A DNA stretch of 64,000 nucleotides from a virus (lineage: Duplodnaviria > Caudoviricetes): IMG/VR virus record IMGVR_UViG_3300023119_000004. One strand, written 5' to 3'. The position numbers and the translations under genes are program-made. This document shows positions 1 to 14,192 of this stretch, piece after piece (the stretch's first letter is position 1; every line of letters begins with the position of its first letter). The notes under the pieces were generated by a model. That model had not been told where the DNA came from, made no database searches, and worked only from the letters and a program-made list of their open reading frames with translations.

Positions 1-20
1 AAAAATCACTGCCGTTTTCA

Positions 21-120
21 CTGTGGATAAGTCTGTGGATAAGTCTGTGGATTCGTTGTGGATAGGTTGTGGATAACTCGTGATCTGTGGATAACTCTGT
101 GGATAACTCTGTGGATAAGT
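21..120 (-). repeat. Tandem DnaA-box array (8 boxes, 11-12 bp period)
   Basis: TGTGGATAA (reverse complement TTATCCACA, consensus DnaA box) is exact at 22, 34, 68, 86, 98 and 110, with variants at 46 (TGTGGATTC) and 57 (TGTGGATAG). All are in the same orientation; unit (C)TGTGGATAA(G/C)T. Confidence 0.9.
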
Positions 121-156
121 CTTCGCGAACCCTGCCTCTTTGTGTTCGTTCGGGGT

Positions 157-178
157 TAAGTCATTGATTATTAAGAGG
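157..178 (-). promoter_or_regulatory. IHF consensus site, left arm of a 22-bp inverted repeat
   Basis: 157-169 TAAGTCATTGATT is the reverse complement of AATCAATGACTTA, matching WATCAANNNNTTR. The arm matches 246-267 at 20/22. Confidence 0.65.
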
Positions 179-211
179 TTTTTGGTGTCGTTTGAACTCG
201 AACAAGAGAGG

Positions 212-239
212 GGTGCGTATAAGGTTTATTATGTTAAAT
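212..239 (+). other. dif-like XerC/XerD recombination site 1
   Basis: GGTGCGTATAA-GGTTTA-TTATGTTAAAT versus E. coli dif GGTGCGCATAA-TGTATA-TTATGTTAAAT: 25/28 identical, exact XerD arm, 6-bp spacer. Confidence 0.85.
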
Positions 240-245
240 TCAAGA

Positions 246-267
246 CCTGTTAAGAATCAATGACTTA
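246..267 (+). promoter_or_regulatory. IHF consensus site, right arm of inverted repeat
   Basis: AATCAATGACTTA at 255-267 matches WATCAANNNNTTR and lies between the two dif-like sites. Confidence 0.65.
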
Positions 268-285
268 CAGTTCAAAACCGAGCCA

Positions 286-313
286 TTTGCGTATATAATA
301 TATTATGTTAAAT
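286..313 (+). other. dif-like XerC/XerD recombination site 2 (direct repeat of site 1)
   Basis: TTTGCGTATAT-AATATA-TTATGTTAAAT: exact XerD arm, degenerate XerC arm with the TGCGTATA core; starts 74 bp after site 1. Confidence 0.7.
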
Positions 314-420
314 TCGAGGTGGGGCTGAATTTAATTTGATTTTTTGGCTATTTAGGGGTTGACTTTTGGAACCGTTGACCATATACTGTAAAGACAATGA
401 GGGATAAGAGGGAACAAGAT

Positions 421-927
421 ATGCAAGAATTGATGGCAGAATTGGCGAAGCGTAATGCAAAGACCGAGGCGTGGGTTGCTGAGGACCCTGCTAACCGTTG
501 GGCTGGACTATACTCAATGGACGAGGCGCATTGGAGGGAGCGTGGGATCACCAATTTGGTGGACTTTGAGCGTGACGAGTTGGCCACTTATATATACGAG
601 GGCCACAAGGACGCTTTTGGTGTCAAGGGTCGACATTACAATTTTGACTCAATGTCGCTAGAGGACCTTCGATCAGAGGCGGACTATATCAGTCGCTCTG
701 TGAAGGAGCAGATGGAGTTAGAGGCTGAAATGGAGCGTGAGGCCATGCGAAACTTTGAGGAGGCCGTCACCAAGTATGAGGCTATGGGGGCTGGCAGTCG
801 CGAGAATGCGATCCGTTGGTTGCTTCAAGCAGAGGGGTTGGAGAAGGAACATGACCCATCCTACATCTGCTATCACCTGGGGCTACCATATTCAATGGCC
901 AAGAAGTTCGAGGCCTTCACCGTATAG
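421..927 (+). CDS. Early hypothetical protein
   Basis: ORF 397..927; the start is moved to ATG 421 after the GAGGGA-type leader and own promoter; followed by a terminator. Confidence 0.8.
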   Translation: MQELMAELAKRNAKTEAWVAEDPANRWAGLYSMDEAHWRERGITNLVDFERDELATYIYEGHKDAFGVKGRHYNFDSMSLEDLRSEADYISRSVKEQMELEAEMEREAMRNFEEAVTKYEAMGAGSRENAIRWLLQAEGLEKEHDPSYICYHLGLPYSMAKKFEAFTV

Positions 928-984
928 GGAGTGAGTAGAAACACCGTTAGACCTGACCCCTACATATAAGATCAGGCGGGAAGA

Positions 985-1023
985 GAGAGGCGCCCTCGAG
1001 AAAGGCCTCTCATCTTTTTTTTT
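985..1023 (+). terminator. Rho-independent terminator
   Basis: Stem GAGAGGC/GCCTCTC (985-1011) followed by a 9-T tract. Confidence 0.75.
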
Positions 1024-1141
1024 GGGTATACTGAACCTTCAGGCACCTGGGGTGTATTGAACTCCGGTATCTACAATCTAATGCTAACGTTCCCGGCATT
1101 TTGGAAGATGTTGCTTTGCCCTCTTCCCTTATTGTTCTTAC

Positions 1142-1170
1142 AGTATACCTTCTTTTAGCCAAAAGGTCAA
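1142..1170 (-). promoter_or_regulatory. Leftward sigma70 promoter with no convincing gene
   Basis: Minus strand TTGACC-17 bp-TATACT. Confidence 0.65.
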
Positions 1171-1183
1171 CCTTTTTTTTGCC

Positions 1184-1204
1184 TGTGGATAACTCTGTGG
1201 ATAA
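1184..1204 (-). repeat. Second DnaA-box pair
   Basis: TGTGGATAA at 1184 and 1196, same 12-bp unit and orientation as the array at 21-120. Confidence 0.8.
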
Positions 1205-1235
1205 CCGGAATTCCGCCCATCGGGAGCGTAATTAT

Positions 1236-1264
1236 ATTATAACACATTTTGGACGAGATGTCAA
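1236..1264 (-). promoter_or_regulatory. Leftward perfect-consensus sigma70 promoter
   Basis: Minus strand TTGACA-17 bp-TATAAT; divergent from the + promoter at 1299. Confidence 0.75.
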
Positions 1265-1334
1265 CCAAAATAATTCAATTTTTTTTGCATTTTTTGGGTT
1301 GACATTTTGGTAAAAAGAGTCTATAATACGTAGT

Positions 1335-1676
1335 ATGTTAAACAATAAGAGAGCGATTGATATGTTAAAACTTACAAAATGCGGTTCAGAGATCAACGGT
1401 AATGAGTCTACTACTTTTTACAATGTAGAAGGTACTGTTAAACTTGCTATGGACGGTATCTGGGACTATAGCGGTAAAGATACTGTGACTGTTAATACTA
1501 TCACAGTTAATGAAGAAGAAGACGGTTATAAGCACATTAGCGTCACACACGATACAACGTGGGACATTTATACTGATAGCGGTTTTGAGTCTGCTATTAG
1601 CAAAGCACTCGGTTACGAGGTAGCATTTACAGAACAAGGTATGCAAGACAACGGTGTTGCTAGTTTAGAGATATAA
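1335..1676 (+). CDS. Early hypothetical protein
   Basis: 113-aa ORF behind a consensus promoter (the true start may be a few codons later). Confidence 0.75.
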   Translation: MLNNKRAIDMLKLTKCGSEINGNESTTFYNVEGTVKLAMDGIWDYSGKDTVTVNTITVNEEEDGYKHISVTHDTTWDIYTDSGFESAISKALGYEVAFTEQGMQDNGVASLEI

Positions 1677-1751
1677 CGGTAAAAAAGAGGTTGACAAATT
1701 GGTTTATGTGTGCTACAATGTACACATAAACTAAAAAATTGAGAGGGCAAT

Positions 1752-1952
1752 ATGAGAAAACAATTACAAATCGGCACAAAAATCAACTGCCGTTTCGGCG
1801 AGGCCAAGATCACAGCCATCGAACTTTGCGAACACGAAGGTGAGAAAGAAGGCATTCCTATGAAGAAGGTCTGGATCGATCTTAAGGATCGTTGCGTGTT
1901 CTCACTGGATAACGGTCATTGGCAGTACGGCTATCAGGTGGAGGCTGTATAA
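1752..1952 (+). CDS. Early hypothetical protein
   Basis: 66-aa ORF with promoter and GAGGGCA leader. Confidence 0.75.
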   Translation: MRKQLQIGTKINCRFGEAKITAIELCEHEGEKEGIPMKKVWIDLKDRCVFSLDNGHWQYGYQVEAV

Positions 1953-2611
1953 TGAAACGGACTTTACTTGCTACAGGCATCGTGCTGGCCATAACAACTT
2001 CGATGTCGGCTGGTGCTGAGAAACTTAAATCATTCGACCATGCGGCCGAGTTGACTTCGCAGGCCAAGACCATCCTATGGAGAGAACTAAACGAAGCGAA
2101 GGTTCCGGCTAAGGCACATAGAGATATTGTTTGCCTAGCAGAGAACATCTACTTTGAGTCTAGGGCAGAATCCATCGAGGGGAAGGCCGCGGTGGCCAAT
2201 GTGACACGAAACAGGGTCAACAGTGATCTGTTCCCTAATAACTATTGTGACGTGGTTCAACAGGGACCAGTGAGGGAATCATGGAAGACCAAGAAGGATC
2301 CCAACCTGGATGCAAAGGATCGGGTCTACTATCCCATCAAGCATCGTTGTCAGTTCTCATGGTACTGCGATGGTGCCAAGGATATCATCTGGGCTAACAA
2401 GGAACGATCAGGTAAGACTATTCAAGCAAATGCCAAGGCCTGGACCACTAGCGTAGAGGTTGCAATCTGGACCTTGGGCTACGGATCCTATCGTGTTAAT
2501 GACAACACCGAGGGAGCCCTATGGTATTATGCACACAACCTAGTCTATCCTAACTGGGCAGATGAAAAGACTACCACAGCAATCATAGGTAATCACACAT
2601 TTCAAAAGTGA
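1952..2611 (+). CDS. Cell wall hydrolase, SleB/Hydrolase_2 family, with signal peptide
   Basis: CLAENIYFESRAE..GKAAVANVTRNRV, CQFSWYCDG and IGNHTF motifs; hydrophobic N-terminus MKRTLLATGIVLA. Confidence 0.85.
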   Translation: MKRTLLATGIVLAITTSMSAGAEKLKSFDHAAELTSQAKTILWRELNEAKVPAKAHRDIVCLAENIYFESRAESIEGKAAVANVTRNRVNSDLFPNNYCDVVQQGPVRESWKTKKDPNLDAKDRVYYPIKHRCQFSWYCDGAKDIIWANKERSGKTIQANAKAWTTSVEVAIWTLGYGSYRVNDNTEGALWYYAHNLVYPNWADEKTTTAIIGNHTFQK

Positions 2612-2690
2612 GTATTTTGGAAAATAAATGGTTGACTTTTGGTTTAGTTGATGTTATTATATACACATAAACTAAAAAAACGGAGGGCAT

Positions 2691-3062
2691 ATGACATTTT
2701 ACGTTTATCACAAAACAGACTCAAGAATTGCTACTGGTAAGGGCAATACGCATTACGGTCAGCACGAATACAACACAGAAGGTCAAGCAAAAGCGGCGAT
2801 CACTCGTATTGTAAAGAAGGCTCAAGCAAAGCATGATCGTCTAAAGGCAAGCGAATACAGTTGGGATAATGAAAGAGCACAAGAGGCTCTAGATCGTGTG
2901 GCGGATCTTGCTATTGCTGAAAGCGGACACTATCATCAGCACATTGAGCGATATGAAACTGTTTACAGCATCTTTGATCACAATCGTGAGAATCCAATTA
3001 GAGAGAGCGTGAATACCCCGCACTACATGAGCCCCTCATCAGAAACATATTGGTCAATGTAA
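2691..3062 (+). CDS. Early hypothetical protein
   Basis: 123-aa ORF with promoter and GAGGGCA leader. Confidence 0.75.
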   Translation: MTFYVYHKTDSRIATGKGNTHYGQHEYNTEGQAKAAITRIVKKAQAKHDRLKASEYSWDNERAQEALDRVADLAIAESGHYHQHIERYETVYSIFDHNRENPIRESVNTPHYMSPSSETYWSM

Positions 3063-3124
3063 AAAATTGGTTGACAGTATAGCATTTCGGTGCTATACTG
3101 TAAACATAATGAAAGAGAGGGTAT

Positions 3125-3340
3125 ATGAGCAAGACTAAAAATTGGTTAATGGATCAAGAAGAAGAATTCTACTCAATCGCTGATGGGGTGATCGGTGAGT
3201 GTGAGGAGTTGGGTGAATTTGTTGCAAAAATGCAACACCACTCAGATAAGGTTGAATGGACACTAGATCAAGAGGTCGGTGAGAGATTCGAAGATCTATG
3301 TGGTGATCTTTGGAGTGAATATTGGTCAAAATATTTGTAA
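3125..3340 (+). CDS. Small acidic early protein
   Basis: 71-aa ORF with own promoter. Confidence 0.7.
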   Translation: MSKTKNWLMDQEEEFYSIADGVIGECEELGEFVAKMQHHSDKVEWTLDQEVGERFEDLCGDLWSEYWSKYL

Positions 3341-3408
3341 AAAAATGGTTGACTTTTGGTTTAAGAGACTGTATAGTATACATATAAACTAAACAAATGA
3401 GGGCAATT

Positions 3409-3606
3409 ATGAAAACACTTTTTAATTCAATAGCAGGTCTACTACTAATAGGTGGCTTGATTATGATGGCAGGTTCAGCAGGTGACTGTGATGGTCATTG
3501 TGGACCGGGCAATACAATCAGCGAGATGCTGATGATAGCAGGCGTAGGTCTAGCGTTCTTCGTGACTGGTGCCGCAATTCTAATTTCTAACTCACAGGAG
3601 GCGTAA
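3409..3606 (+). CDS. Small two-TM membrane protein
   Basis: Two hydrophobic stretches flanking GDCDGHC; start after GAGGGCA at 3399. Confidence 0.7.
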   Translation: MKTLFNSIAGLLLIGGLIMMAGSAGDCDGHCGPGNTISEMLMIAGVGLAFFVTGAAILISNSQEA

Positions 3607-3834
3607 ATGAAACTTTCAATTCAAGGTTCAAACATGACAGAGATCACAACCGCTCGAGGTAACAAGGTTCTCTACTCATACGAAACGCCAGTTGCTGGAT
3701 GGACCGAACAAGGTGCATTCCGAACTGAAGAGAAGTTCTCGGTGACTACTAGCAAACACATCAACAAATACCTAGGTGGTAAGGATGTGGGCAAGGTAGT
3801 TCCCCAGAAGTGGATCGAAGGGTTGGTCCAATAA
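3607..3834 (+). CDS. Conserved phage hypothetical protein
   Basis: 75-aa ORF (VLYSYETPVAG...TTSKHINKYL), abutting its neighbours. Confidence 0.75.
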   Translation: MKLSIQGSNMTEITTARGNKVLYSYETPVAGWTEQGAFRTEEKFSVTTSKHINKYLGGKDVGKVVPQKWIEGLVQ

Positions 3835-4025
3835 TGAAAAAGATTCTACTCATAGTGGCCCTGGTCAGTCTAACTGGCTGTGGGACTATGAGCGGGAGAG
3901 ATGTGATCAAAAGCATTAACCTTGCCAAGAACGCATCTATGATCACCAAAGCAGGAGTAGAAGAGTCTGTGATTACCAAAACCAAAGACATCTTCGATCC
4001 GGCCAGAGGTGGTGGAAAATGGTAA
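3834..4025 (+). CDS. Small lipoprotein
   Basis: MKKILLIVALVSLTGC: basic N-terminus, hydrophobic core, LTGC lipobox. Confidence 0.7.
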   Translation: MKKILLIVALVSLTGCGTMSGRDVIKSINLAKNASMITKAGVEESVITKTKDIFDPARGGGKW

Positions 4026-4103
4026 AGATATTGGTTGACTTTCATTCCAATCTTTGCTATAATATATAAACAATGAAAGAATAGGCTAAGGAGGCTAAAA
4101 CAA

Positions 4104-4418
4104 ATGACTGATAAACTATATACCGTAGCAGGCACATCGATGTCAAATGGTAAGACCAAAGTAAGGTTCGCGAATGACTATGTAGGTAGATTCAAGATCC
4201 TGACTAAGAATGGTCATGAAAACATCAATCTAGTAGAGTTGGACCAGCCAATGAGTAAGGCTGACGTTTGCAAGTTTTTGCAGGCATCTGATAAGTTCCA
4301 AGACGAAGCATCACAATCTGCGATTGCTGAGTTCGTTGTAAGAAACATCAAGGTAGCACCTGCAACAGCACCTGCACCAACACCAGTAGCAGAAACAGTA
4401 GAACCAGAAGTAGCATAA
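4104..4418 (+). CDS. Early hypothetical protein with Pro/Ala-rich tail
   Basis: 104-aa ORF behind a consensus promoter. Confidence 0.75.
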   Translation: MTDKLYTVAGTSMSNGKTKVRFANDYVGRFKILTKNGHENINLVELDQPMSKADVCKFLQASDKFQDEASQSAIAEFVVRNIKVAPATAPAPTPVAETVEPEVA

Positions 4419-4510
4419 GGTTCGGCACCATTAGGGGTTGACAACAACCCCTAGGTGTGCTATATTAAAACATCATTAGAAGACAATCAATAGAAGGAAC
4501 CGGAATTATC

Positions 4511-4596
4511 GCCCCTGTGGTGGAATTGGTAGACACAAGGGACTTAAAATCCCTCGCTGATATGGCGTGCCGGTTCGAGTCCGGCTGGGGGCACCA
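4511..4596 (+). tRNA. tRNA-Leu (UAA)
   Basis: Acceptor GCCCCTG/TGGGGGC, anticodon arm AGGGA-CTTAAAA-TCCCT, long variable arm, GGTTCGAGTCC T-arm, encoded CCA. Confidence 0.95.
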
Positions 4597-4608
4597 ATTC
4601 ATACATAT

Positions 4609-4686
4609 CTGCCCGTAGTTCAGTTGGATTAGAACAACGGTCTTCTAAACCGTAGGTCGCAGGTTCGAGTCCTGCCGGGCAGGCCA
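4609..4686 (+). tRNA. tRNA-Arg (UCU)
   Basis: Acceptor CTGCCCG/CGGGCAG, anticodon arm ACGGT-CTTCTAA-ACCGT, GGTTCGAGTCC T-arm, encoded CCA. Confidence 0.95.
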
Positions 4687-4690
4687 ATTC

Positions 4691-4780
4691 GTGGCATCAG
4701 AAGATGTCACACTCGGGAGATCAGTGGACAGCCTGATCTTGCCTAAGACAGTCGGTGGGGGTCTTAGAGCACTTTTTTTA
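4691..4780 (+). ncRNA. Candidate structured RNA: three consecutive hairpins after tRNA-Arg
   Basis: Stems GTGGCATC/GATGTCAC, GAGATCAG/CTGATCTT and CTAAGAC/GTCTTAG, then a T-tract. Confidence 0.45.
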
Positions 4781-4843
4781 ATTTTTCGGTTGACAAATTG
4801 GATAGACCGTGCTATTGTAATAGTATAGCAAGAGGAGATCAAG

Positions 4844-5032
4844 ATGCTAAATGTTCATTTCGTTAACCGTGGATACAAAACAGATGATGGATTCAAGAAC
4901 GTGGGTCTAATCAAATTGGACGTTTGTGAGTATACCCAGACTCCTAAAGCACTTATAGAATCACCATACTTCCCAGGAGACACACTTTGGGCTCGTTTTG
5001 AGGGCACTGAATGGGTGTGTGATTTGGATTAA
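4844..5032 (+). CDS. Early hypothetical protein
   Basis: 62-aa ORF with promoter and AGGAG RBS. Confidence 0.7.
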   Translation: MLNVHFVNRGYKTDDGFKNVGLIKLDVCEYTQTPKALIESPYFPGDTLWARFEGTEWVCDLD

Positions 5033-5100
5033 ATTAGGGGTTGACATCCCGTCCAAAAGACTGTATAGTGTAACTATAAACTAAAAAGAAAGAGGGCAAA

Positions 5101-5274
5101 ATGTTAGAGTTAATTGGTTTAATTGCAATCGCATTCGTTATCGTAAAGTTCTTCCCAGACATCATGTTGTTTGCTGTGAAGGCTGGCGTGGTTCTGATCA
5201 TGCTGTATTTCCTACTAGGTGGTCTACTTTGGATCTTTGGTAGTTCAATTGCGGTCCACATCAATACATTTTAA
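5101..5274 (+). CDS. 57-aa membrane protein (below the ORF-track cutoff)
   Basis: Hand translation MLELIGLIAIAFVIVKFFPDIMLFAVKAGVVLIMLYFLLGGLLWIFGSSIAVHINTF; promoter at 5041 and GAGGGCA at 5092. Confidence 0.8.
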   Translation: MLELIGLIAIAFVIVKFFPDIMLFAVKAGVVLIMLYFLLGGLLWIFGSSIAVHINTF

Positions 5275-5338
5275 TGGTTGACAAACGAATCAAAAGAGTG
5301 TATTATATAAACATAAACTAAAAAAGCAGGAGGGCACA

Positions 5339-5575
5339 ATGGCAACAGATTTGAAATCACACGCACAGGACGTATCATTGACACGGTTCTGGGGCGGAGA
5401 GAAACGCGGAGTATGCGTTCAGGTTACAGCCAAGAGAGCAAGTTCACAACCTACGGGTTTGTTACCCGACACTGGGTTCGAAACAGTTCAGTTGACAAAA
5501 GCACAAGCGGCGGCATTGGCGGCTGACTTGTTGGACTTTGCACAGAACAGAGAAGTTGAACATTTTGGCGAATAA
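5339..5575 (+). CDS. Early hypothetical protein
   Basis: 78-aa ORF with promoter and GAGGGCA leader. Confidence 0.75.
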   Translation: MATDLKSHAQDVSLTRFWGGEKRGVCVQVTAKRASSQPTGLLPDTGFETVQLTKAQAAALAADLLDFAQNREVEHFGE

Positions 5576-5640
5576 GTACTTGACATTTAAATCCGTAGAC
5601 TGTATAGTATACATATAATTTAATTAACAGAGAGGGCAAT

Positions 5641-6642
5641 ATGAAATCCATTAGAATCAAATCAGGCAGTTACAAGATCCGAGGCAAGGACGTAGAACTA
5701 AGCGGCATGGTGTTTCCACTAGTCGAAGAGTTCAAGGTTGGTGCCCAGGGTGGTTACGTAACTGTAGACGGAACTGCTGTAGCAGGCTTTCCAGATCGTA
5801 ACATCAAGATCAAAGTTAACAGCGCCGACGACTACGAAGCGACAAGTGCAAAGGTAACAGCACGAGAAGAGTCGGACGAAGAGACCATGGAGCGAATCGC
5901 AGAGCGATTTGATATCCTAGAAGACATGACACGTGCCGCCAAGAAAGGTGATGTACGTGCAATGATCGTAACAGGCCCTCCGGGTGTTGGTAAGTCGTTT
6001 GGTGTAGAGAAAGTGCTAGGCAAGCACGATCTGATCAGCACACTAGGTGAGCGTCCTCCCAAGTATCAAGTTGTCAAGGGTGCAATGTCAGCAATTGGAC
6101 TCTACTGTAAACTGTACAACTACGCGGACAAGGACAACGTACTAGTGTTTGATGACTGTGACTCAGTACTACAGGATGACCTTTCACTTAATATTTTGAA
6201 AGCCGCACTTGATTCAAAGAAGACTAGAATGATTCACTGGAATACGGATTCATTCAAGTTGCGTAACGAAGGCGTGCCTGATTCATTCGAGTTCAAGGGT
6301 TCATGCATATTCATTACCAACATCAAGTTCGACAACGTTAAGAGCAAGAAACTGCGTGATCACCTGGAAGCAATTGAATCACGTTGCCACTACATTGATC
6401 TTACAATCGACACAGAACGAGAGAAGATGTTGCGTATCAAGCAGATCGTTAGAGATGGTATGCTGGATCAGCACGAACTAAGTGAAGAAACACATCAGGC
6501 AGTTGTGGACTTCATTGACATTAATAAAAAGAAATTACGTGAGTTGAGTCTAAGGACTGTGCTCAAAGTAGCCGACTTAGCCAAAGCGTTCCCTGCTAAA
6601 TGGGAAGCGATGGCTGAGAATACTGTTCTGAAACGAGCCTAA
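5641..6642 (+). CDS. AAA+ family P-loop ATPase
   Basis: Walker A GPPGVGKS, Walker B VLVFDDCD, FITN and ESR motifs. Confidence 0.85.
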   Translation: MKSIRIKSGSYKIRGKDVELSGMVFPLVEEFKVGAQGGYVTVDGTAVAGFPDRNIKIKVNSADDYEATSAKVTAREESDEETMERIAERFDILEDMTRAAKKGDVRAMIVTGPPGVGKSFGVEKVLGKHDLISTLGERPPKYQVVKGAMSAIGLYCKLYNYADKDNVLVFDDCDSVLQDDLSLNILKAALDSKKTRMIHWNTDSFKLRNEGVPDSFEFKGSCIFITNIKFDNVKSKKLRDHLEAIESRCHYIDLTIDTEREKMLRIKQIVRDGMLDQHELSEETHQAVVDFIDINKKKLRELSLRTVLKVADLAKAFPAKWEAMAENTVLKRA

Positions 6643-6709
6643 TCACTGCCCTCAACCTGGCTCTGAGCAGTATTAGAACCCCTGGGATGTGCCCTCGTCC
6701 TGGGGGTTC
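6640..6709 (+). ncRNA. Double-hairpin element with TGCCCTC loop (copy A)
   Basis: 12-bp stem 6676-6709 with loop TGTGCCCTCG; the upstream hairpin carries a 17-mer shared exactly with 8317-8333. Confidence 0.4.
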
Positions 6710-6809
6710 ACCTTGACAAAAACTCCATAAAATATAGGCAAATTAGGGGTTGACATTTTGGATCTTTGAGTGCATAATGTATATACACACTAAGGAAAAG
6801 AGGGCAAAT

Positions 6810-7145
6810 ATGCAAGACACATACGTAGTAAACAAGTTCAAGGCAGGCGAAGTACATTTCCAAAACGGCGCCGCAGGTTGGTTGTTTGATAACGGTGAGT
6901 TCCGTCCACTAATGGATGACGCCATGGAGCAACTTCTAGAAGCAGGATTGGTTGATCAAGCAACAGTAGAGATCACAGCACAAGCCAGAGACGTGTACAC
7001 AGAGAAGAGTATCCGTGAGTACATCGAAGCACAGCGTAACCGTACCCAAGAGCAGATCGCAGAAGAGCGTTTTGAAGCAAGAGCGGCTATGGGACCAGGC
7101 GTTGAAATGGTTAACATCATAACAGGAGAACGATACACAACCTAA
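6810..7145 (+). CDS. Early hypothetical protein
   Basis: Start moved to ATG 6810 after the promoter at 6750 and GAGGGCA at 6800. Confidence 0.75.
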   Translation: MQDTYVVNKFKAGEVHFQNGAAGWLFDNGEFRPLMDDAMEQLLEAGLVDQATVEITAQARDVYTEKSIREYIEAQRNRTQEQIAEERFEARAAMGPGVEMVNIITGERYTT

Positions 7146-7225
7146 GGGTTGTGTGTTTTTTGGTTGACATTTGAAGGTGTTGACTGTATTATAATACTAT
7201 AAACTAACAAAGAGGGCTAAACATT

Positions 7226-7573
7226 ATGAACATTCAAGACATACACATCCAAGCAACAGCAATGGCACAGAAGGCAGTAGCAGAGTACTTAGAGGACTGG
7301 ACTGCTAAGACAGGCGGCAATCAATATGGTGAGCCAATGTATTGTGGCTTTGCTTGGGTAGATGTAAGTGTAACTAGAACCAACAGCAAAGAGGCTAAAC
7401 TGCTAGAGAGCATTGGCTTCAAGCCTAGTTGGAGACCCAAGCAGATGCAACTTTGGGATCCAGCAAAGCATAACGGACAGAGCATGGACTGTAAGGAAGT
7501 GGGTGCCCAGGCTTACGCAGAGGTGCTAAGACAGCATGGCTTTAAGGCTAGTATGGGAAGCAGAGCAGACTAA
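7226..7573 (+). CDS. Early hypothetical protein
   Basis: 115-aa ORF (CGFAWV...GAQAYAEVL) with own promoter. Confidence 0.8.
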   Translation: MNIQDIHIQATAMAQKAVAEYLEDWTAKTGGNQYGEPMYCGFAWVDVSVTRTNSKEAKLLESIGFKPSWRPKQMQLWDPAKHNGQSMDCKEVGAQAYAEVLRQHGFKASMGSRAD

Positions 7574-7611
7574 CACGTTGCAGGATACGTTGCAGAACGT
7601 GCAACGAGAAA

Positions 7612-7640
7612 GGGCCGGTGGAGACATCGGCCTTTTTTTT
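7612..7640 (+). terminator. Terminator ending the early region
   Basis: GGCCGGTG-GAGA-CATCGGCC followed by T8. Confidence 0.8.
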
Positions 7641-7876
7641 GACAGAAATTTCTCGAGGGGCATGGGGCATAAGTCTTTATTTTTAAAGCACTTTTTGCAA
7701 GTGGGCAGGGGTAGAATCACCACCCAGATTTGATAAGTACTTCTTTTTAAAAAACTGTGCTATGTCATAAACTGCTACAGACCCCATTTCTGTGTGTAAA
7801 TACAGTTGTAAGCACAGTAGTAAACAGTTTCAGCAATTATCTATTAGATTGCACGTTTCACTAGTGTACAGAGTGT

Positions 7877-8188
7877 ATGAGTGCTATTTTACACACAGGA
7901 AACTCTGTTTATACTGTGCTTACGCTCTATATAAGGATCTTCGCTATTACTAATACTACTACCCATAAGCAATTCAATCACTATGCTGTATATACACGTG
8001 ACCCTGACTATGTACGTATTATGCGTATTGTAAAGCGTCTAGGATTCAAGTTTGAAATTCACGTTATGCGTACTCGCTTTTGGGTTCCGTGCGATTCAAA
8101 GTATAACAGTCTATTTGCTGTTCGCTGTGTGGAGGTCTCAGATGAAGTGGATCATAGCACAGGACTTAAACACATAAGTGAGATATAA
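7877..8188 (+). CDS. Hypothetical protein
   Basis: 103-aa ORF (YAVYTRDP...RTRFWVP); start uncertain; TAAATAC motif upstream near 7797. Confidence 0.5.
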   Translation: MSAILHTGNSVYTVLTLYIRIFAITNTTTHKQFNHYAVYTRDPDYVRIMRIVKRLGFKFEIHVMRTRFWVPCDSKYNSLFAVRCVEVSDEVDHSTGLKHISEI

Positions 8189-8272
8189 AAAACTTCTCGG
8201 CAAAAACACCAAGTACTTCACAAAATTTTTTTGCAGTATATTTTTTTTGGGTGCAAGGGGAATCGGAGCCAT

Positions 8273-8351
8273 AAAAAAAGGGACTGCCCTCTGTGTCCCT
8301 TTAGTGCATTACAAAACCCTCAACCTGGCTCTGTTCTACACTAGTATTTAG
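8273..8351. ncRNA. Double-hairpin element with TGCCCTC loop (copy B)
   Basis: AAAGGGAC/GTCCCTTT stem with loop TGCCCTCTGT, plus the shared 17-mer at 8317-8333. On the minus strand it is bounded by CTAAATAC (8344-8351) and a U-tract. Confidence 0.4.
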
Positions 8352-8402
8352 ATACAGCACAATAGTTATTAAGTATACACATAATGGTTGCATAAATACA
8401 GT

Positions 8403-9161
8403 ATGGCCAATAGAAAACACTACGACTTTGAACAAATGGTTACGGGTGGATACCTGTCAGATCACACGCACAATCACAAGTTCGGCGCCGCGCCTTCAAT
8501 ATCAATTAACACCACAGCAAGTATTTGGGACGTCGGCGACACACTTTATCCTTGGACGGCATTGGACACTCCAGCGGTAGTAAATGTAGAACGCAACGAT
8601 GCCGCAGACACAGGATTGATTGTTACCGTAATAGGATTAGACAGTGATTGGAACGTTCAAGAAGAACAAATCACAATCACAGGTGCGGACCAAGTGGGCA
8701 CCAAACTATGGCGTAGGGTGAACAGAGCCTACGTCAGTTCAGGCACAGCCGTAGTGAATGTGGGCAACATTGACATTGAAGCAGGTGCCGCAGGTGGTAC
8801 CACAGTTGCTCGTATTACAGCCAACCTTGGACAGACACTGATGTGTGTTTATACCATACCAGCAGGATACATTGGATACTTGTACCAAGGCACTATGACT
8901 GTACAGGCTAACGCAGATGCTACAGGTTATATGTTTGTAAGACGCAATGGCGAAGGCGTTACATTTAGAGTGGGACATACCTTTGAAGTTGCTGGCGGAT
9001 CACAGTATAATTACAAGTTCTCTTTCCCTCCAGCAATACCAGAAAAAAGCGACATTGATGTAAGAGCCCTAGTTAGAAGTAACAATGCTAGAGTTACAGC
9101 AACGTTTGACATCCTGCTTGTAGAGAACGACCCCGAAGCACCAATAAGTTCAAGCCTATAA
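8403..9161 (+). CDS. Hypothetical, probably virion-associated protein
   Basis: Long ORF; ATG 8403 follows the late-type ATAAATAC motif; beta-rich, Gly/Thr-rich. Confidence 0.7.
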   Translation: MANRKHYDFEQMVTGGYLSDHTHNHKFGAAPSISINTTASIWDVGDTLYPWTALDTPAVVNVERNDAADTGLIVTVIGLDSDWNVQEEQITITGADQVGTKLWRRVNRAYVSSGTAVVNVGNIDIEAGAAGGTTVARITANLGQTLMCVYTIPAGYIGYLYQGTMTVQANADATGYMFVRRNGEGVTFRVGHTFEVAGGSQYNYKFSFPPAIPEKSDIDVRALVRSNNARVTATFDILLVENDPEAPISSSL

Positions 9162-9198
9162 TATACCCAAAACACATACCTGCTATGCTAAATACTAA

Positions 9199-9250
9199 TA
9201 CGTTCGAGCAACACGCTTGGAAGTAGACACTATGTCGAAGGAACGCACCT
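9199..9250 (+). ncRNA. Glutamine riboswitch (glnA-motif class)
   Basis: P1 CGTTC/GAACG, P2 GAGC/GCTT, junction GGAAGTA, P3 GAC/GTC, then GAAG. This is the layout and conserved residues of the glnA/Downstream-peptide RNAs. It sits between a late promoter motif (9188) and AGGAGG-ATG 9272. Confidence 0.85.
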
Positions 9251-9271
9251 AACTTTAACAAGGAGGGTGAC

Positions 9272-9466
9272 ATGGATAGACACTCATTTATGCTCAAGCA
9301 ATACAGTGAGCAACAACTACGTAAAAAGAAAGAAATGGAATTATGGAAGGCTCGTCATGAGGTGGAAATAAATGGTCATGGTACTTCTGGTTATGTAGTA
9401 AAGCATGGTCCTAACAAAGATAAAATCTTAGGACATCAGTCTACTAAATCTACCAACAACTGGTAG
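9272..9466 (+). CDS. 64-aa basic protein under riboswitch control
   Basis: Strong RBS AGGAGG; directly downstream of the riboswitch. Confidence 0.8.
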   Translation: MDRHSFMLKQYSEQQLRKKKEMELWKARHEVEINGHGTSGYVVKHGPNKDKILGHQSTKSTNNW

Positions 9467-9470
9467 TCAA

Positions 9471-9526
9471 AAAAAAGAGCAATCCGGGTGTACACATAAT
9501 AATACGTATACCCGTTGCTCTTATAA
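9471..9526. terminator. Long hairpin, probably a bidirectional terminator
   Basis: AAGAGCAA/TTGCTCTT plus CGGGTGTAC/GTATACCCG stems between convergent genes. Confidence 0.6.
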
Positions 9527-9547
9527 AAATTTAAGTGAAAAATTTTG

Positions 9548-9772
9548 TTATTGATTAGCCTTAACTACAGGCCATAGTTCTTTTACTAGTTTGTCTTTGG
9601 TTTGTCTACGATCAAGTTCTATACCGTGAACACGACCCAAGTCTTCTAGTTGTGTTTTGGTCATTTTAGCAAGTTCAGCACGTTTAAGTTTACGCGGTGT
9701 CTCTACAGGTTTATCCAATACTAGAGGCTCCTGTACAGTACTGCCAAATAACGATTTTAACCATTTTAACAT
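9548..9772 (-). CDS. Small protein with Rho-N/HeH-like helical motif
   Basis: LAKMTKTQLEDLGRVHGIELDRRQTKDKLV; TATAAATA upstream at 9789-9796. Confidence 0.7.
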   Translation of the reverse strand: MLKWLKSLFGSTVQEPLVLDKPVETPRKLKRAELAKMTKTQLEDLGRVHGIELDRRQTKDKLVKELWPVVKANQ

Positions 9773-9859
9773 AATAGTACCTCCGTTTTATTTATAGGGT
9801 TAACCATCGCCCCGTGTGCAGTCTGAACGGTGTGCAACGAAGTATAGCACACACTTAAA

Positions 9860-10160
9860 AAGGCGTCTTAAACGCAATATAAGCGTCATACACACGTCAG
9901 ATAGGGCAAAGTACTACAAAGATGCTTAAATGCAAAATAAGAGCCATTTAGGGGTGATTTTCATACGTTTAAGACGTCTTAAATGCATGGTGAAAAAGAG
10001 GTAGGCATTCGGATTAAAGAGCCAAATTCCGGCGCTCCGTTTTCTAGCGTTTTACCGCTACCGCTTCGCGGATCTAAAATCTACCGCACCGATTTGCTTA
10101 AATGGCTTTCCACCGCTACCGCGGTCGCTACGCTCTAAATGGCTTTTCCGCTCCGCGGCT
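9860..10160. repeat. Non-coding palindrome and degenerate repeat block
   Basis: Perfect 16-bp palindrome TTTAAGACGTCTTAAA (9968-9983); repeated CTTAAATGC/TAAATGGCT and CCGCTACCGC units. Confidence 0.55.
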
Positions 10161-13202: not shown

Positions 13203-14192
13203 TTAGTTATTATACCATACGTTAGGGTTAAAGTCAATAGTCTTTTTATCCATTGCTAATACAGCGCCAATGCAACTTCCTGGGTCACCCGGGTTAGGTG
13301 GAACATATACACTATTCCATGTTTCTCTTAGTTGGTCCATTGCATCTCTATTTAACGCACAACCGCCTGTTACAATTAAATCCCGATTTGGTAAGTTTTC
13401 GGTACACCATTTAGCACTAGACTTAACAATCATTTCAAAAACACTTTGGGTAGCATTAGCAAGTCTTTTCATATCATCTTCTGTAGTTAGGTCAGGTCTA
13501 TACCATTGGCAACCTTTGTGTAGGTTGTGTTTAAACTTAACACCTGGTTTAGATCCATCTAACGGTCCGTCGATAAATGTTTTGATTAGATCATTTATTA
13601 ATGATAAGTTTTCTGTAATAGCAATATCTCTTCCTGCTTCACTAATTTTGTATTCTTCTGCATTAGGTTTAAATCCACAACGCATTGTCATAGCACTATA
13701 AAATAATCCAATACTATGTGGATAACTTTGTGAATAAACTTTCTTTAGTTTTCTATTAGAATCACCAGACCAAATAGTAAAACATTCAAACTCACCAATG
13801 CTGTCTAAACACATGACAGTTGCTTTAGGAATGCCTTGTGTATAGTAACCATATGCCGCATGGCTATGATGGTGTTGCATATATTTTACAGGACAGTCAA
13901 TGCCTAAGTCTGCAAGATACTTTTCAATATTATTTTCTTTTACACAACTTAAGAAACTGCCTTGGCCTGCTCGCCATTGTCTAAATGATTTTAACAAAGG
14001 CTTTTCATACCATACTACTAAGTCAGGCTTGCCATAACTTTGTATTGCTGTTTGAATTTGTATTGGGGAATGTTTAGGATCGTTTGGCACATCACTAAAC
14101 TTGTTAGCGGTACTTGCCCAAACTAAAAACCCGTCTTTGAAAACAGCCAGCGATGCATCGTGACTGTTACCTACCATTCCCCAAGTAATCAT
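13203..14192 (-). CDS. Carbamoyltransferase (NodU/CmcH family), N-terminal Kae1-like domain only
   Basis: HDASLAV, HHHSHAA, LDSIGE, SIGLFYS, GGCALN and PGDPGSCIGA motifs; 329 aa. Confidence 0.8.
   Translation of the reverse strand: MITWGMVGNSHDASLAVFKDGFLVWASTANKFSDVPNDPKHSPIQIQTAIQSYGKPDLVVWYEKPLLKSFRQWRAGQGSFLSCVKENNIEKYLADLGIDCPVKYMQHHHSHAAYGYYTQGIPKATVMCLDSIGEFECFTIWSGDSNRKLKKVYSQSYPHSIGLFYSAMTMRCGFKPNAEEYKISEAGRDIAITENLSLINDLIKTFIDGPLDGSKPGVKFKHNLHKGCQWYRPDLTTEDDMKRLANATQSVFEMIVKSSAKWCTENLPNRDLIVTGGCALNRDAMDQLRETWNSVYVPPNPGDPGSCIGAVLAMDKKTIDFNPNVWYNN

Follow-up and report, generated by a model that had tools for sequence, protein, structure and literature searches.

Paired dif-like sites with a centred IHF motif, beside a DnaA-box array, in the early untranslated DNA of an uncultured giant myovirus

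Why should a phage equipped with its own replication genes gather, within some 300 bp of untranslated DNA, an array of DnaA boxes, candidate sites for integration host factor (IHF) and two sites resembling dif, the chromosomal target of XerC and XerD? The question is raised by positions 21 to 313 of the IMG/VR virus record IMGVR_UViG_3300023119_000004, analysed here as a stretch of 64,000 nucleotides (the window). Its source is an uncultured, T4-distant giant myovirus, abundant in salt-marsh metagenomes, whose large terminase shares 53% identity with its counterpart in Pseudomonas phage PA5oct, and whose genome, of T4 type, is estimated at 300 kb at least. Its gene products include a primase, two helicases (DnaB-like and UvsW-like) and a sheath protein of 1082 residues; calling this uncultured phage lytic is an assumption. 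The answer that we favour, tentatively and somewhat short of an even chance, is that the locus is a Xer recombination locus acting on copies of the phage genome, in the manner of P1 lox but served by the host recombinase. The features on which this answer turns are the following.

157..182, minus strand: 26-nt inverted repeat, left arm; the core at 157-169 corresponds to the IHF consensus
212..239, plus strand: dif-like site 1, with XerC arm GGTGCGTATAA, central region GGTTTA and XerD arm TTATGTTAAAT
242..267, plus strand: right arm of the inverted repeat, with the IHF-consensus core AATCAATGACTTA at 255-267
286..313, plus strand: dif-like site 2, with XerC arm TTTGCGTATAT, central region AATATA and a perfect XerD arm

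In site 1, 25 of the 28 positions, among them all 11 of the XerD arm, agree with the pattern of E. coli dif, a match that none of 100 shuffles gave. Site 2, which lies 74 nt downstream in direct orientation and overlaps a promoter-like match at 271-299, agrees at 22 of 28 positions, again with an XerD arm of 11/11. Both are organised as dif-type cores, namely, an 11-bp XerC arm, a central region of 6-8 bp and an 11-bp XerD arm, following the proteobacterial consensus. The arms of the inverted repeat (157-182 and 242-267) match at 88%, harbour two identical 13-mer IHF-consensus cores and bracket site 1, and the AATCAATGACTTA core is centred between the dif-like sites, 15 nt past the first and 18 nt before the second. 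The 74-bp spacing corresponds to seven helical turns, with the IHF site at most 2 bp from the midpoint. In the window as a whole, the consensus WATCAANNNNTTR itself is no commoner than chance would have it, with seven occurrences. A first-pass annotation, made from the letters alone, had reported eight co-oriented DnaA boxes, both dif-like sites (with 25/28 for the first) and both IHF-consensus sites, one of them inverted, and all of these are indeed present.

With regard to conservation, 14 strain variants are near-identical across the region except in the iteron and DnaA arrays, and this comparison is uninformative because the whole region is near-invariant outside the repeat arrays. A more distant relative is the 75.7-kb IMG/VR contig G002, which is syntenic with the window at 50-87% protein identity and whose non-coding gap shares about 37% identity with that of the window overall. 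In this gap, site 1 is identical over 29 nt, site 2 and the exact 74-nt spacing are kept, and the dif pair with its centred IHF core stands out as the main island of identity; the motif TAAGTCATTG of the left inverted-repeat arm is also kept, at another distance. Other contigs of the clade (L317, L363, L369 and L373) keep the dif pair, surrounded by three to five IHF-consensus sites, and carry no DnaA boxes. The XerD arm of site 2 is always perfect in relatives, with an XerC arm that is degenerate in some. In their IHF sites, variation is seen in the NNNN bases whereas (W)ATCAA and TTAG stay the same, and the place of the core between the dif sites does not change: the IHF-like core occupies bases 16-28 of the interval in the window, in G002 and in the unrelated contig G003. 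Conservation confined in this way to the consensus positions of WATCAANNNNTTR is what would be expected of IHF sites, which these are predicted to be. The comparison with relatives therefore separates a conserved core (dif, 15 nt, IHF site, 18 nt, dif) from a species-specific addition, the DnaA array, which is absent from all five divergent relatives examined (G002, L317, L363, L369 and L373). That the host-factor sites are under selection, and are due neither to chance nor to a chimera, is borne out by the 29-nt identity of site 1 amid about 37%, and by the XerC arms of phage-borne sites, which track and resemble the dif arms of different host types.

Does the locus truly belong to the phage? 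The window begins inside a repeat array, and one metagenome contig (L006) is chimeric elsewhere, which might have pointed to host DNA or a chimeric join at the contig start. This artefact is excluded by independent ENA and JGI assemblies from many samples, which run through the region with phage genes on both sides and establish the contiguity that had been called for; the breakpoint of L006 is a phage tRNA gene 4.2 kb away, near window position 4533, away from the dif sites. At least 10 metagenome contigs cross base 1 of the window into 10 kb of further small early genes on the same strand, and because they do so independently, base 1 is an assembly break within the repeat array, and no genome end or host junction. 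The DnaA, IHF and dif elements form the final third of a 1.14-kb untranslated gap amid an early-gene stretch of about 20 kb. Of this gap, the first-pass annotation had no more than the final 400 nt in view, and it wrongly took the promoter at 359-387 for the first early promoter. In the window, positions 1-10000 carry early genes on the plus strand at about 43% GC, and positions 10000-64000 replication and structural genes on the minus strand at 33-40% GC. Phage tRNA genes are found at about 4490-4700, and at its position 14133, in the middle of such a gene, L006 passes from phage sequence into bacterial genes (NIPSNAP, M48 peptidase, Na/H antiporter), most likely because tRNA similarity produced a chimeric assembly, though the join could hint at the host.

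The geometry of the core is also found in an unrelated tailed-phage family (G003, L331, L337, L339, L370 and L372), as a dif-like site, 15 nt, AATCAAT(A/G)ACTTA, 18-19 nt and a second dif-like site, with a DnaA-box pair about 100 nt further downstream in two of its contigs. More widely, the composite of an XerD arm, 14-20 nt (about 17) and TCAATNACTTA comes in about 96 distinct versions, carried by 61 IMG/VR contigs and by more than 118 from metagenomes, where a rough estimate of chance expectation is far below one. Because none of 120 chromosomal dif sites has this companion motif beside it, the motif is a feature of mobile elements, and the phage module is no copy of a host dif region. On the chromosomes of marine Gammaproteobacteria, namely, Halieaceae (L018, L022, L030, L032, L050 and L051) and Glaciecola (L031, L045), dif sites have DnaA-box-like 9-mers (TTATGCACA, TTACCCACA, TTATCCACA) within 6-20 nt past the XerD arm; an association of dif with DnaA boxes may exist on chromosomes as well.

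Where do such sites lie in phages whose genome ends are known? Dif-type sites are common in tailed phages, with more than 150 environmental contigs in addition to 233 cultured phage records; the latter have a single dif-like site with host-type arms and a non-host central region, and belong mostly to virulent Vequintavirinae (rV5, PVP-SE1, CR3, CB7 and KB57 groups). The two Vequintavirinae genomes checked for this point both carry the site in the terminal repeat, namely, Erwinia phage Hena1, at 289-316 of its annotated 519-bp repeat, and Escherichia phage UPEC06, in the middle of a repeat formed by the identical first and last 462 nt of the record. Short repeats of the GTCACT/CACTATCACT type are seen upstream of the dif-like site in Hena1 (L251 130-180), in PVP-SE1 (L252 2395-2410) and in L339, L370, L372 and L331 of the G003 family, much as in the window phage, and might be binding sites for terminase or an accessory protein.

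Furthermore, a GC-rich phiM5-like lineage (47 contigs), whose 12-nt DnaA unit is the same as in the window, has phased DnaA boxes on both sides of a dif-like site, three of them about 100 nt upstream and five about 60 nt downstream. In this lineage and in other phiM5-like phages (about 35-40 kb), the site is placed between terS and terL or just upstream of terS; one example (L141 2480-2880, minus strand), between the two genes, has the central region CACCCA. Cultured phiM5 has a 357-bp direct terminal repeat at the same place, and is informative by position only because this repeat contains neither DnaA boxes nor a dif-like site. In another family (L272 4557-5432, and L343), a dif-like site with the companion motif lies between the module for replication and that for packaging, and the gene directly upstream of it codes for a lambda O-like replication initiator. 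DnaA arrays occur at comparable places: the box-array query matched inside the annotated repeat of the T5-like Serratia phage Slocum, and the T7-like Berlinvirus Shigella phage A7 (L253) has about 10 DnaA boxes (GTTATCCACAGA units) with an 11-12 nt period in its first 160 nt. Matches to the box array were also seen near the ends of other short-tailed phage records, for example Klebsiella phage ZK1. In unrelated tailed phages, then, Xer sites and DnaA arrays are met repeatedly at terminal repeats and packaging genes, within them or next to them.

If the sites resemble dif, are they meant for the chromosome? A chromosomal dif is single, lies at the terminus and has a TGTATA-like central region, and each of three host-type genomes checked has one site of the dif pattern; the phage sites are paired, with GGTTTA and AATATA as central regions. 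Among sampled chromosomal sites with the same XerC-arm type, 90 of 119 have TGTATA or TATATA, and the phage central regions differ from both of these and from one another. Because the central regions differ from host dif and from each other, exchange with the chromosome, or between neighbouring sites 1 and 2, is expected not to complete. These observations bear on an integration function, in which the locus would be the attachment site of an IMEX, a mobile element that integrates through the Xer machinery, inserted by XerCD at host dif as are CTX-phi, VGJ-phi and dif-type non-tailed phages. A dif-like site devoid of a cognate integrase is indeed the hallmark of such elements (PMC6744903, PMC12715192), and the composite motif is present on many small viral contigs. 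Integration is nevertheless highly improbable here: the phage central regions match neither of those common among sampled chromosomal sites, no integrated relatives, which hybrid dif sites would flank, were found in a non-exhaustive sample of 401 Gammaproteobacteria genomes, the genome is of large T4 type, and the Vequintavirinae that carry such a site in the terminal repeat are strictly virulent.

The same central regions, together with the distribution of the DnaA array, weigh on a proposal of the first-pass annotation, according to which the locus is a protein-free decoy that titrates DnaA, IHF and XerCD and thereby shuts down replication and segregation in the host. Boxes of high affinity, arrayed cooperatively and multiplied by the many genome copies of each infected cell, would suit this role, and E. 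coli datA likewise combines DnaA boxes with IHF. The array, however, is missing from the five divergent relatives, and its copy number drifts between co-occurring strains; little could be soaked up by one or two Xer sites per genome, dimer resolution matters in a minority of cell cycles only, and titration needs neither an exact geometry (74 nt, centred IHF) nor non-host central regions, which better fit recombination between phage copies. We therefore did not retain the decoy, which we judge very unlikely.

The mechanism that we propose for a Xer locus acting on phage copies is the following. The 300 bp would be the promoter-proximal part of a protein-free cis region, extending over the whole 1.14 kb, which gathers host proteins on phage DNA; its conserved core would be a paired Xer locus made of two direct dif-type cores with an IHF site between them, and further IHF sites and lineage-specific iterons alongside. 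Host XerC and XerD would bind each core, and IHF would bend the spacer into a U-turn, placing the cores side by side in a compact higher-order complex. Exchange would then occur between like sites on two copies of the phage sequence, either the two ends of a terminally redundant genome, which would yield a circle, or units of a multimer or concatemer, which would be interconverted. We argue that XerC/XerD and IHF act on this DNA because of the Xer-arm matches, the tracking of host types by XerC arms, the kept spacing and the centred IHF site. Protein binding, recombination and a biological role are thus predictions from sequence, drawn from sites, conservation, geometry and recurrence that are observed, and the model leans by analogy on the related sites in or beside terminal repeats of other phages.

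Several points weigh against this proposal. The link to termini comes from other phage families, the contigs of the window phage being assemblies only, and the enrichment of the composite motif near contig ends does not reach significance (KS p = 0.14). Phages of T4 type, which rely on recombination to replicate and on the headful mechanism to package, have no known requirement for circles. FtsK is normally required for recombination at dif, and among the neighbouring open reading frames (ORFs) neither an activator nor an accessory protein was recognised with Pfam and PHROGs. The model also does not explain why two sites should be present and differ in their central regions, and the degenerate XerC arm of site 2 in some relatives could mean that XerD binding alone matters, in a non-recombinational role.

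What, then, is the DnaA array for? The features concerned lie at the very start of the window.

1..21, plus strand: tail of an iteron-like array (ATCACTG, TTCACTG), which continues upstream of the window
22..118, plus strand: phased DnaA array of eight co-oriented boxes (six perfect TGTGGATAA, two imperfect)

Perfect TGTGGATAA boxes start at 22, 34, 68, 86, 98 and 110, and imperfect ones at 46 (two mismatches) and 57 (one mismatch), with successive spacings of 12, 12, 11, 11, 18, 12 and 12, that is, mostly a 12-nt period of a 9-mer plus 3 nt. Nine perfect boxes are observed in the 64-kb window against 0.69 expected, and a second perfect pair (1184-1192 and 1196-1204) is located just downstream of the leftward promoter 1264-1236. 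Strain variants have six to eight DnaA cores, of which three to six are perfect boxes, both copy number and box quality being variable. The iterons amount to about eight GGTCACT-type repeats over 135 nt upstream of base 1 (L002 9470-9605) and are lineage-specific, with TCACTGT-type repeats in G002 and another repeat in L317, L363 and L373. No Rep initiator gene was recognised next to them, the flanking ORFs showing no match to Rep or to a winged helix-turn-helix (wHTH) domain, nor any other informative match. Further upstream, at L002 9265-9297 (about 330 nt from base 1), a AGTATTYAAACTATGCCT box with a few kept bases is present in all jumbo-clade relatives, including G002, L317 and L363, and survives though the neighbouring DNA has diverged; a GGCCCCTTCGGGGCC hairpin is common to the window phage and G002.

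A cluster of DnaA boxes is a feature of oriC-type origins, and the array, with IHF, could represent, next to a Xer locus that is independent of it, a species-specific early origin, dispensable as those of T4 type, which leftward transcription may activate; unwinding could then be a further role of the AT-rich dif-like sites. The co-oriented boxes with their 11-12 nt period recall the left half of E. coli oriC, 38 nt separate the last box from an IHF site, no 30-mers of the gap are richer in AT than the two dif-like sites, and promoter-like sites fire leftward into both DnaA clusters. Origins of T4 are known to differ between related phages, so this reading fits the non-conservation of the array, even though an oriC-type origin would be conserved across related replicons, which the array is not. 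By analogy with oriC, however, the orientation of the boxes predicts unwinding on their upstream side, where the iterons are of moderate AT content, and not on the dif side. Furthermore, no 13-mer or DnaA-trio element was recognised, helicase and primase are encoded by the phage itself, and the leftward promoter at 196-167 matches at only 9 of 12 positions, all of which makes such an origin distinctly unlikely. Within the Xer proposal, the array would be a recent or later species-specific addition of the T5-repeat kind, outside the conserved machine, most likely tethering or synapsing DNA via a DnaA filament, or else assisting local opening.

The iterons and Xer sites taken together suggest yet another function, put forward as a mini-chromosome by the first-pass annotation, namely, plasmid-like maintenance in a carrier or pseudolysogenic state, with a host-driven theta origin (iterons, DnaA, IHF) and Xer sites resolving multimers for segregation. 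Upstream iterons, DnaA boxes, IHF and a Xer core are, as a set, those of a classical basic replicon with its resolution site, the iterons are lineage-specific as in plasmid Rep-iteron pairs, and the first XerC arm is close to what we take to be the XerC arm of ColE1 cer. The proposal fits this list of elements. A search with Pfam and PHROGs found no Rep, Par, recombinase or integrase, wHTH or XafT-like gene among the neighbouring ORFs, and the divergent relatives examined keep the Xer pair, all without the DnaA array. Neither resident copies of relatives nor prophage- or plasmid-like copies were found in the 401 sampled genomes, where a search with TerL returned distant matches only (33-42% identity). 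Like sites are, moreover, inside the terminal repeats of strictly virulent Vequintavirinae. We thus regard a plasmid-like state as unlikely.

The surroundings of the locus complete its description.

359..387, plus strand: sigma-70-type early promoter (TTGACT, 17 nt, TATACT), 45 nt downstream of site 2, a distance of 45 nt in G002 too
421..927, plus strand: first downstream early ORF, 168 residues, phrog_21968, function unknown, with a different gene at this place in G002
1142..1264, minus strand: two leftward promoters, at 1264-1236 (perfect consensus) and 1170-1142

Because G002 carries a different gene at its place, the ORF at 421..927 has no link with the module. No relatives in IMG/VR were found for the 123-residue ORF upstream, and the search for cultured-phage relatives of window positions 1-3000 gave no close ones, matches being limited to short stretches of the DnaA array. 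At 1010-1330, back-to-back divergent promoters are present, and neither of two leftward promoters precedes a convincing gene: the second DnaA-box pair lies in the path of one, and the other faces only a 29-codon ORF, which ends at a bidirectional terminator-like hairpin near 975-1020. The leftward transcript or transcripts could be a small RNA or a regulatory transcript.

How much of this is new? DnaA boxes in the early untranslated DNA of a virulent phage are already known from T5, Xer sites are known on plasmids and non-tailed phages (PMC5357621, PMC6744903, PMC12715192), and exploitation of Xer is documented for plasmids, filamentous phages, microviruses and double-jelly-roll phages. A literature search linking dif or XerCD with jumbo phages, Vequintavirinae, tailed phages or terminal repeats returned nothing relevant except the T5 preprint; no paper was found on Xer sites of tailed phages, on an IHF-centred pair or on its combination with DnaA arrays, most subscription journals being outside the coverage of the search. 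We see a credible route from the window locus to something more general. It is possible, if doubtful, that many tailed phages, from virulent Vequintavirinae to giant marine myoviruses, bear host-type Xer sites in terminal repeats or close to the packaging region and depend there on host XerCD and IHF, with or without DnaA filaments, to circularise or re-sort their genomes. If so, this would be an unrecognised host-dependent step of lytic infection, and the IHF-centred pair a new pre-synaptic architecture for Xer recombination. The dif-type sites of tailed phages are under strong constraint in sequence and spacing, and lie in or beside the terminal repeat where the ends are known. Were XerCD to act there, it would become clear how some terminally redundant genomes can form circles with no recombinase from the phage; therapeutic phages (rV5 and PVP-SE1 groups) would have one more host dependency, and with it a route to resistance against them; and Xer activation could be studied on a new IHF-bent two-site substrate. 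With regard to DnaA, the array of the window is a second example, besides T5, of oriC-like arrays in early untranslated phage DNA, and makes the T5 hypothesis testable by comparison.

Which known systems come closest? The left half of E. coli oriC and datA share with the window phased co-oriented DnaA boxes and a nearby IHF site, but the window has no recognised unwinding element or GATC cluster, its array is not conserved, and the phage has its own replisome. A closer parallel to the array is offered by T5, whose left terminal repeat has clusters of DnaA boxes in an untranslated region termed 'iss' (Davison, 10.1101/866236; first noted in 1987). The first-pass annotation had found DnaA boxes unexpected in a lytic phage with its own replisome, a surprise that is weakened because the T5 array was published (10.1101/866236). 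In T5 as in the window, about eight boxes with a 3-bp separation occur in a large, repeat-rich untranslated region among early or pre-early genes. In this virulent phage, the array is better conserved than the neighbouring genes and lies among pre-early and early genes of host takeover, and the role ascribed to the boxes, an injection stop via membrane-bound DnaA, is itself a hypothesis (10.1101/866236). The T5 boxes are paired within inverted repeats, whereas those of the window are all co-oriented in one tandem array; no dif-like site is reported in T5, and the location of boxes in a terminal repeat is established for T5 and not for the window.

For the Xer sites, the Vequintavirinae are comparable: they too are large myoviruses equipped with replication genes, and in their principal non-coding region host-type Xer arms enclose a central region unlike that of the host. 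They have a single site instead of a pair with a centred IHF site, no DnaA boxes were found in the regions read (Hena1, PVP-SE1), and, unlike in the window, a terminal-repeat location is shown (Hena1, UPEC06). IMEX attachment sites, as in CTX-phi, VGJ-phi, TLC-phi and dif-type non-tailed phages, are likewise phage-borne dif-like sites exploiting XerCD (PMC6744903, PMC9226527, PMC12715192). CTX-phi, too, uses two sites, about 90 nt apart, but in inverted orientation and paired in single-stranded DNA; those of the window are direct repeats in a double-stranded DNA myovirus, for which the sampled genomes hold no evidence of integration and the neighbouring ORFs no XafT-like gene.

The cer and psi sites of plasmids are recombined by XerCD with the accessory proteins PepA and ArgR or ArcA, and consist of a core and about 180 bp of accessory DNA on the XerC side, which makes the reaction FtsK-independent (PMC5357621). 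The window has, on the XerC side of the core, 190 bp of DNA of protein-binding type with DnaA and IHF motifs. Both cases would involve XerCD borrowed by a mobile element, a central region other than that of dif and upstream accessory DNA for host architectural proteins; cer and psi have one core, and the window two cores with flanking IHF sites, and with DnaA in the window species only. In P1, finally, loxP and Cre, near pac, cyclise the terminally redundant P1 DNA and resolve plasmid dimers. The role proposed here for the window locus is alike in that a recombination site falling in the terminal redundancy would both circularise the genome and resolve multimers; P1, a temperate and plasmid-forming phage, brings its own recombinase, whereas the phage of the window would rely on XerCD of its host.

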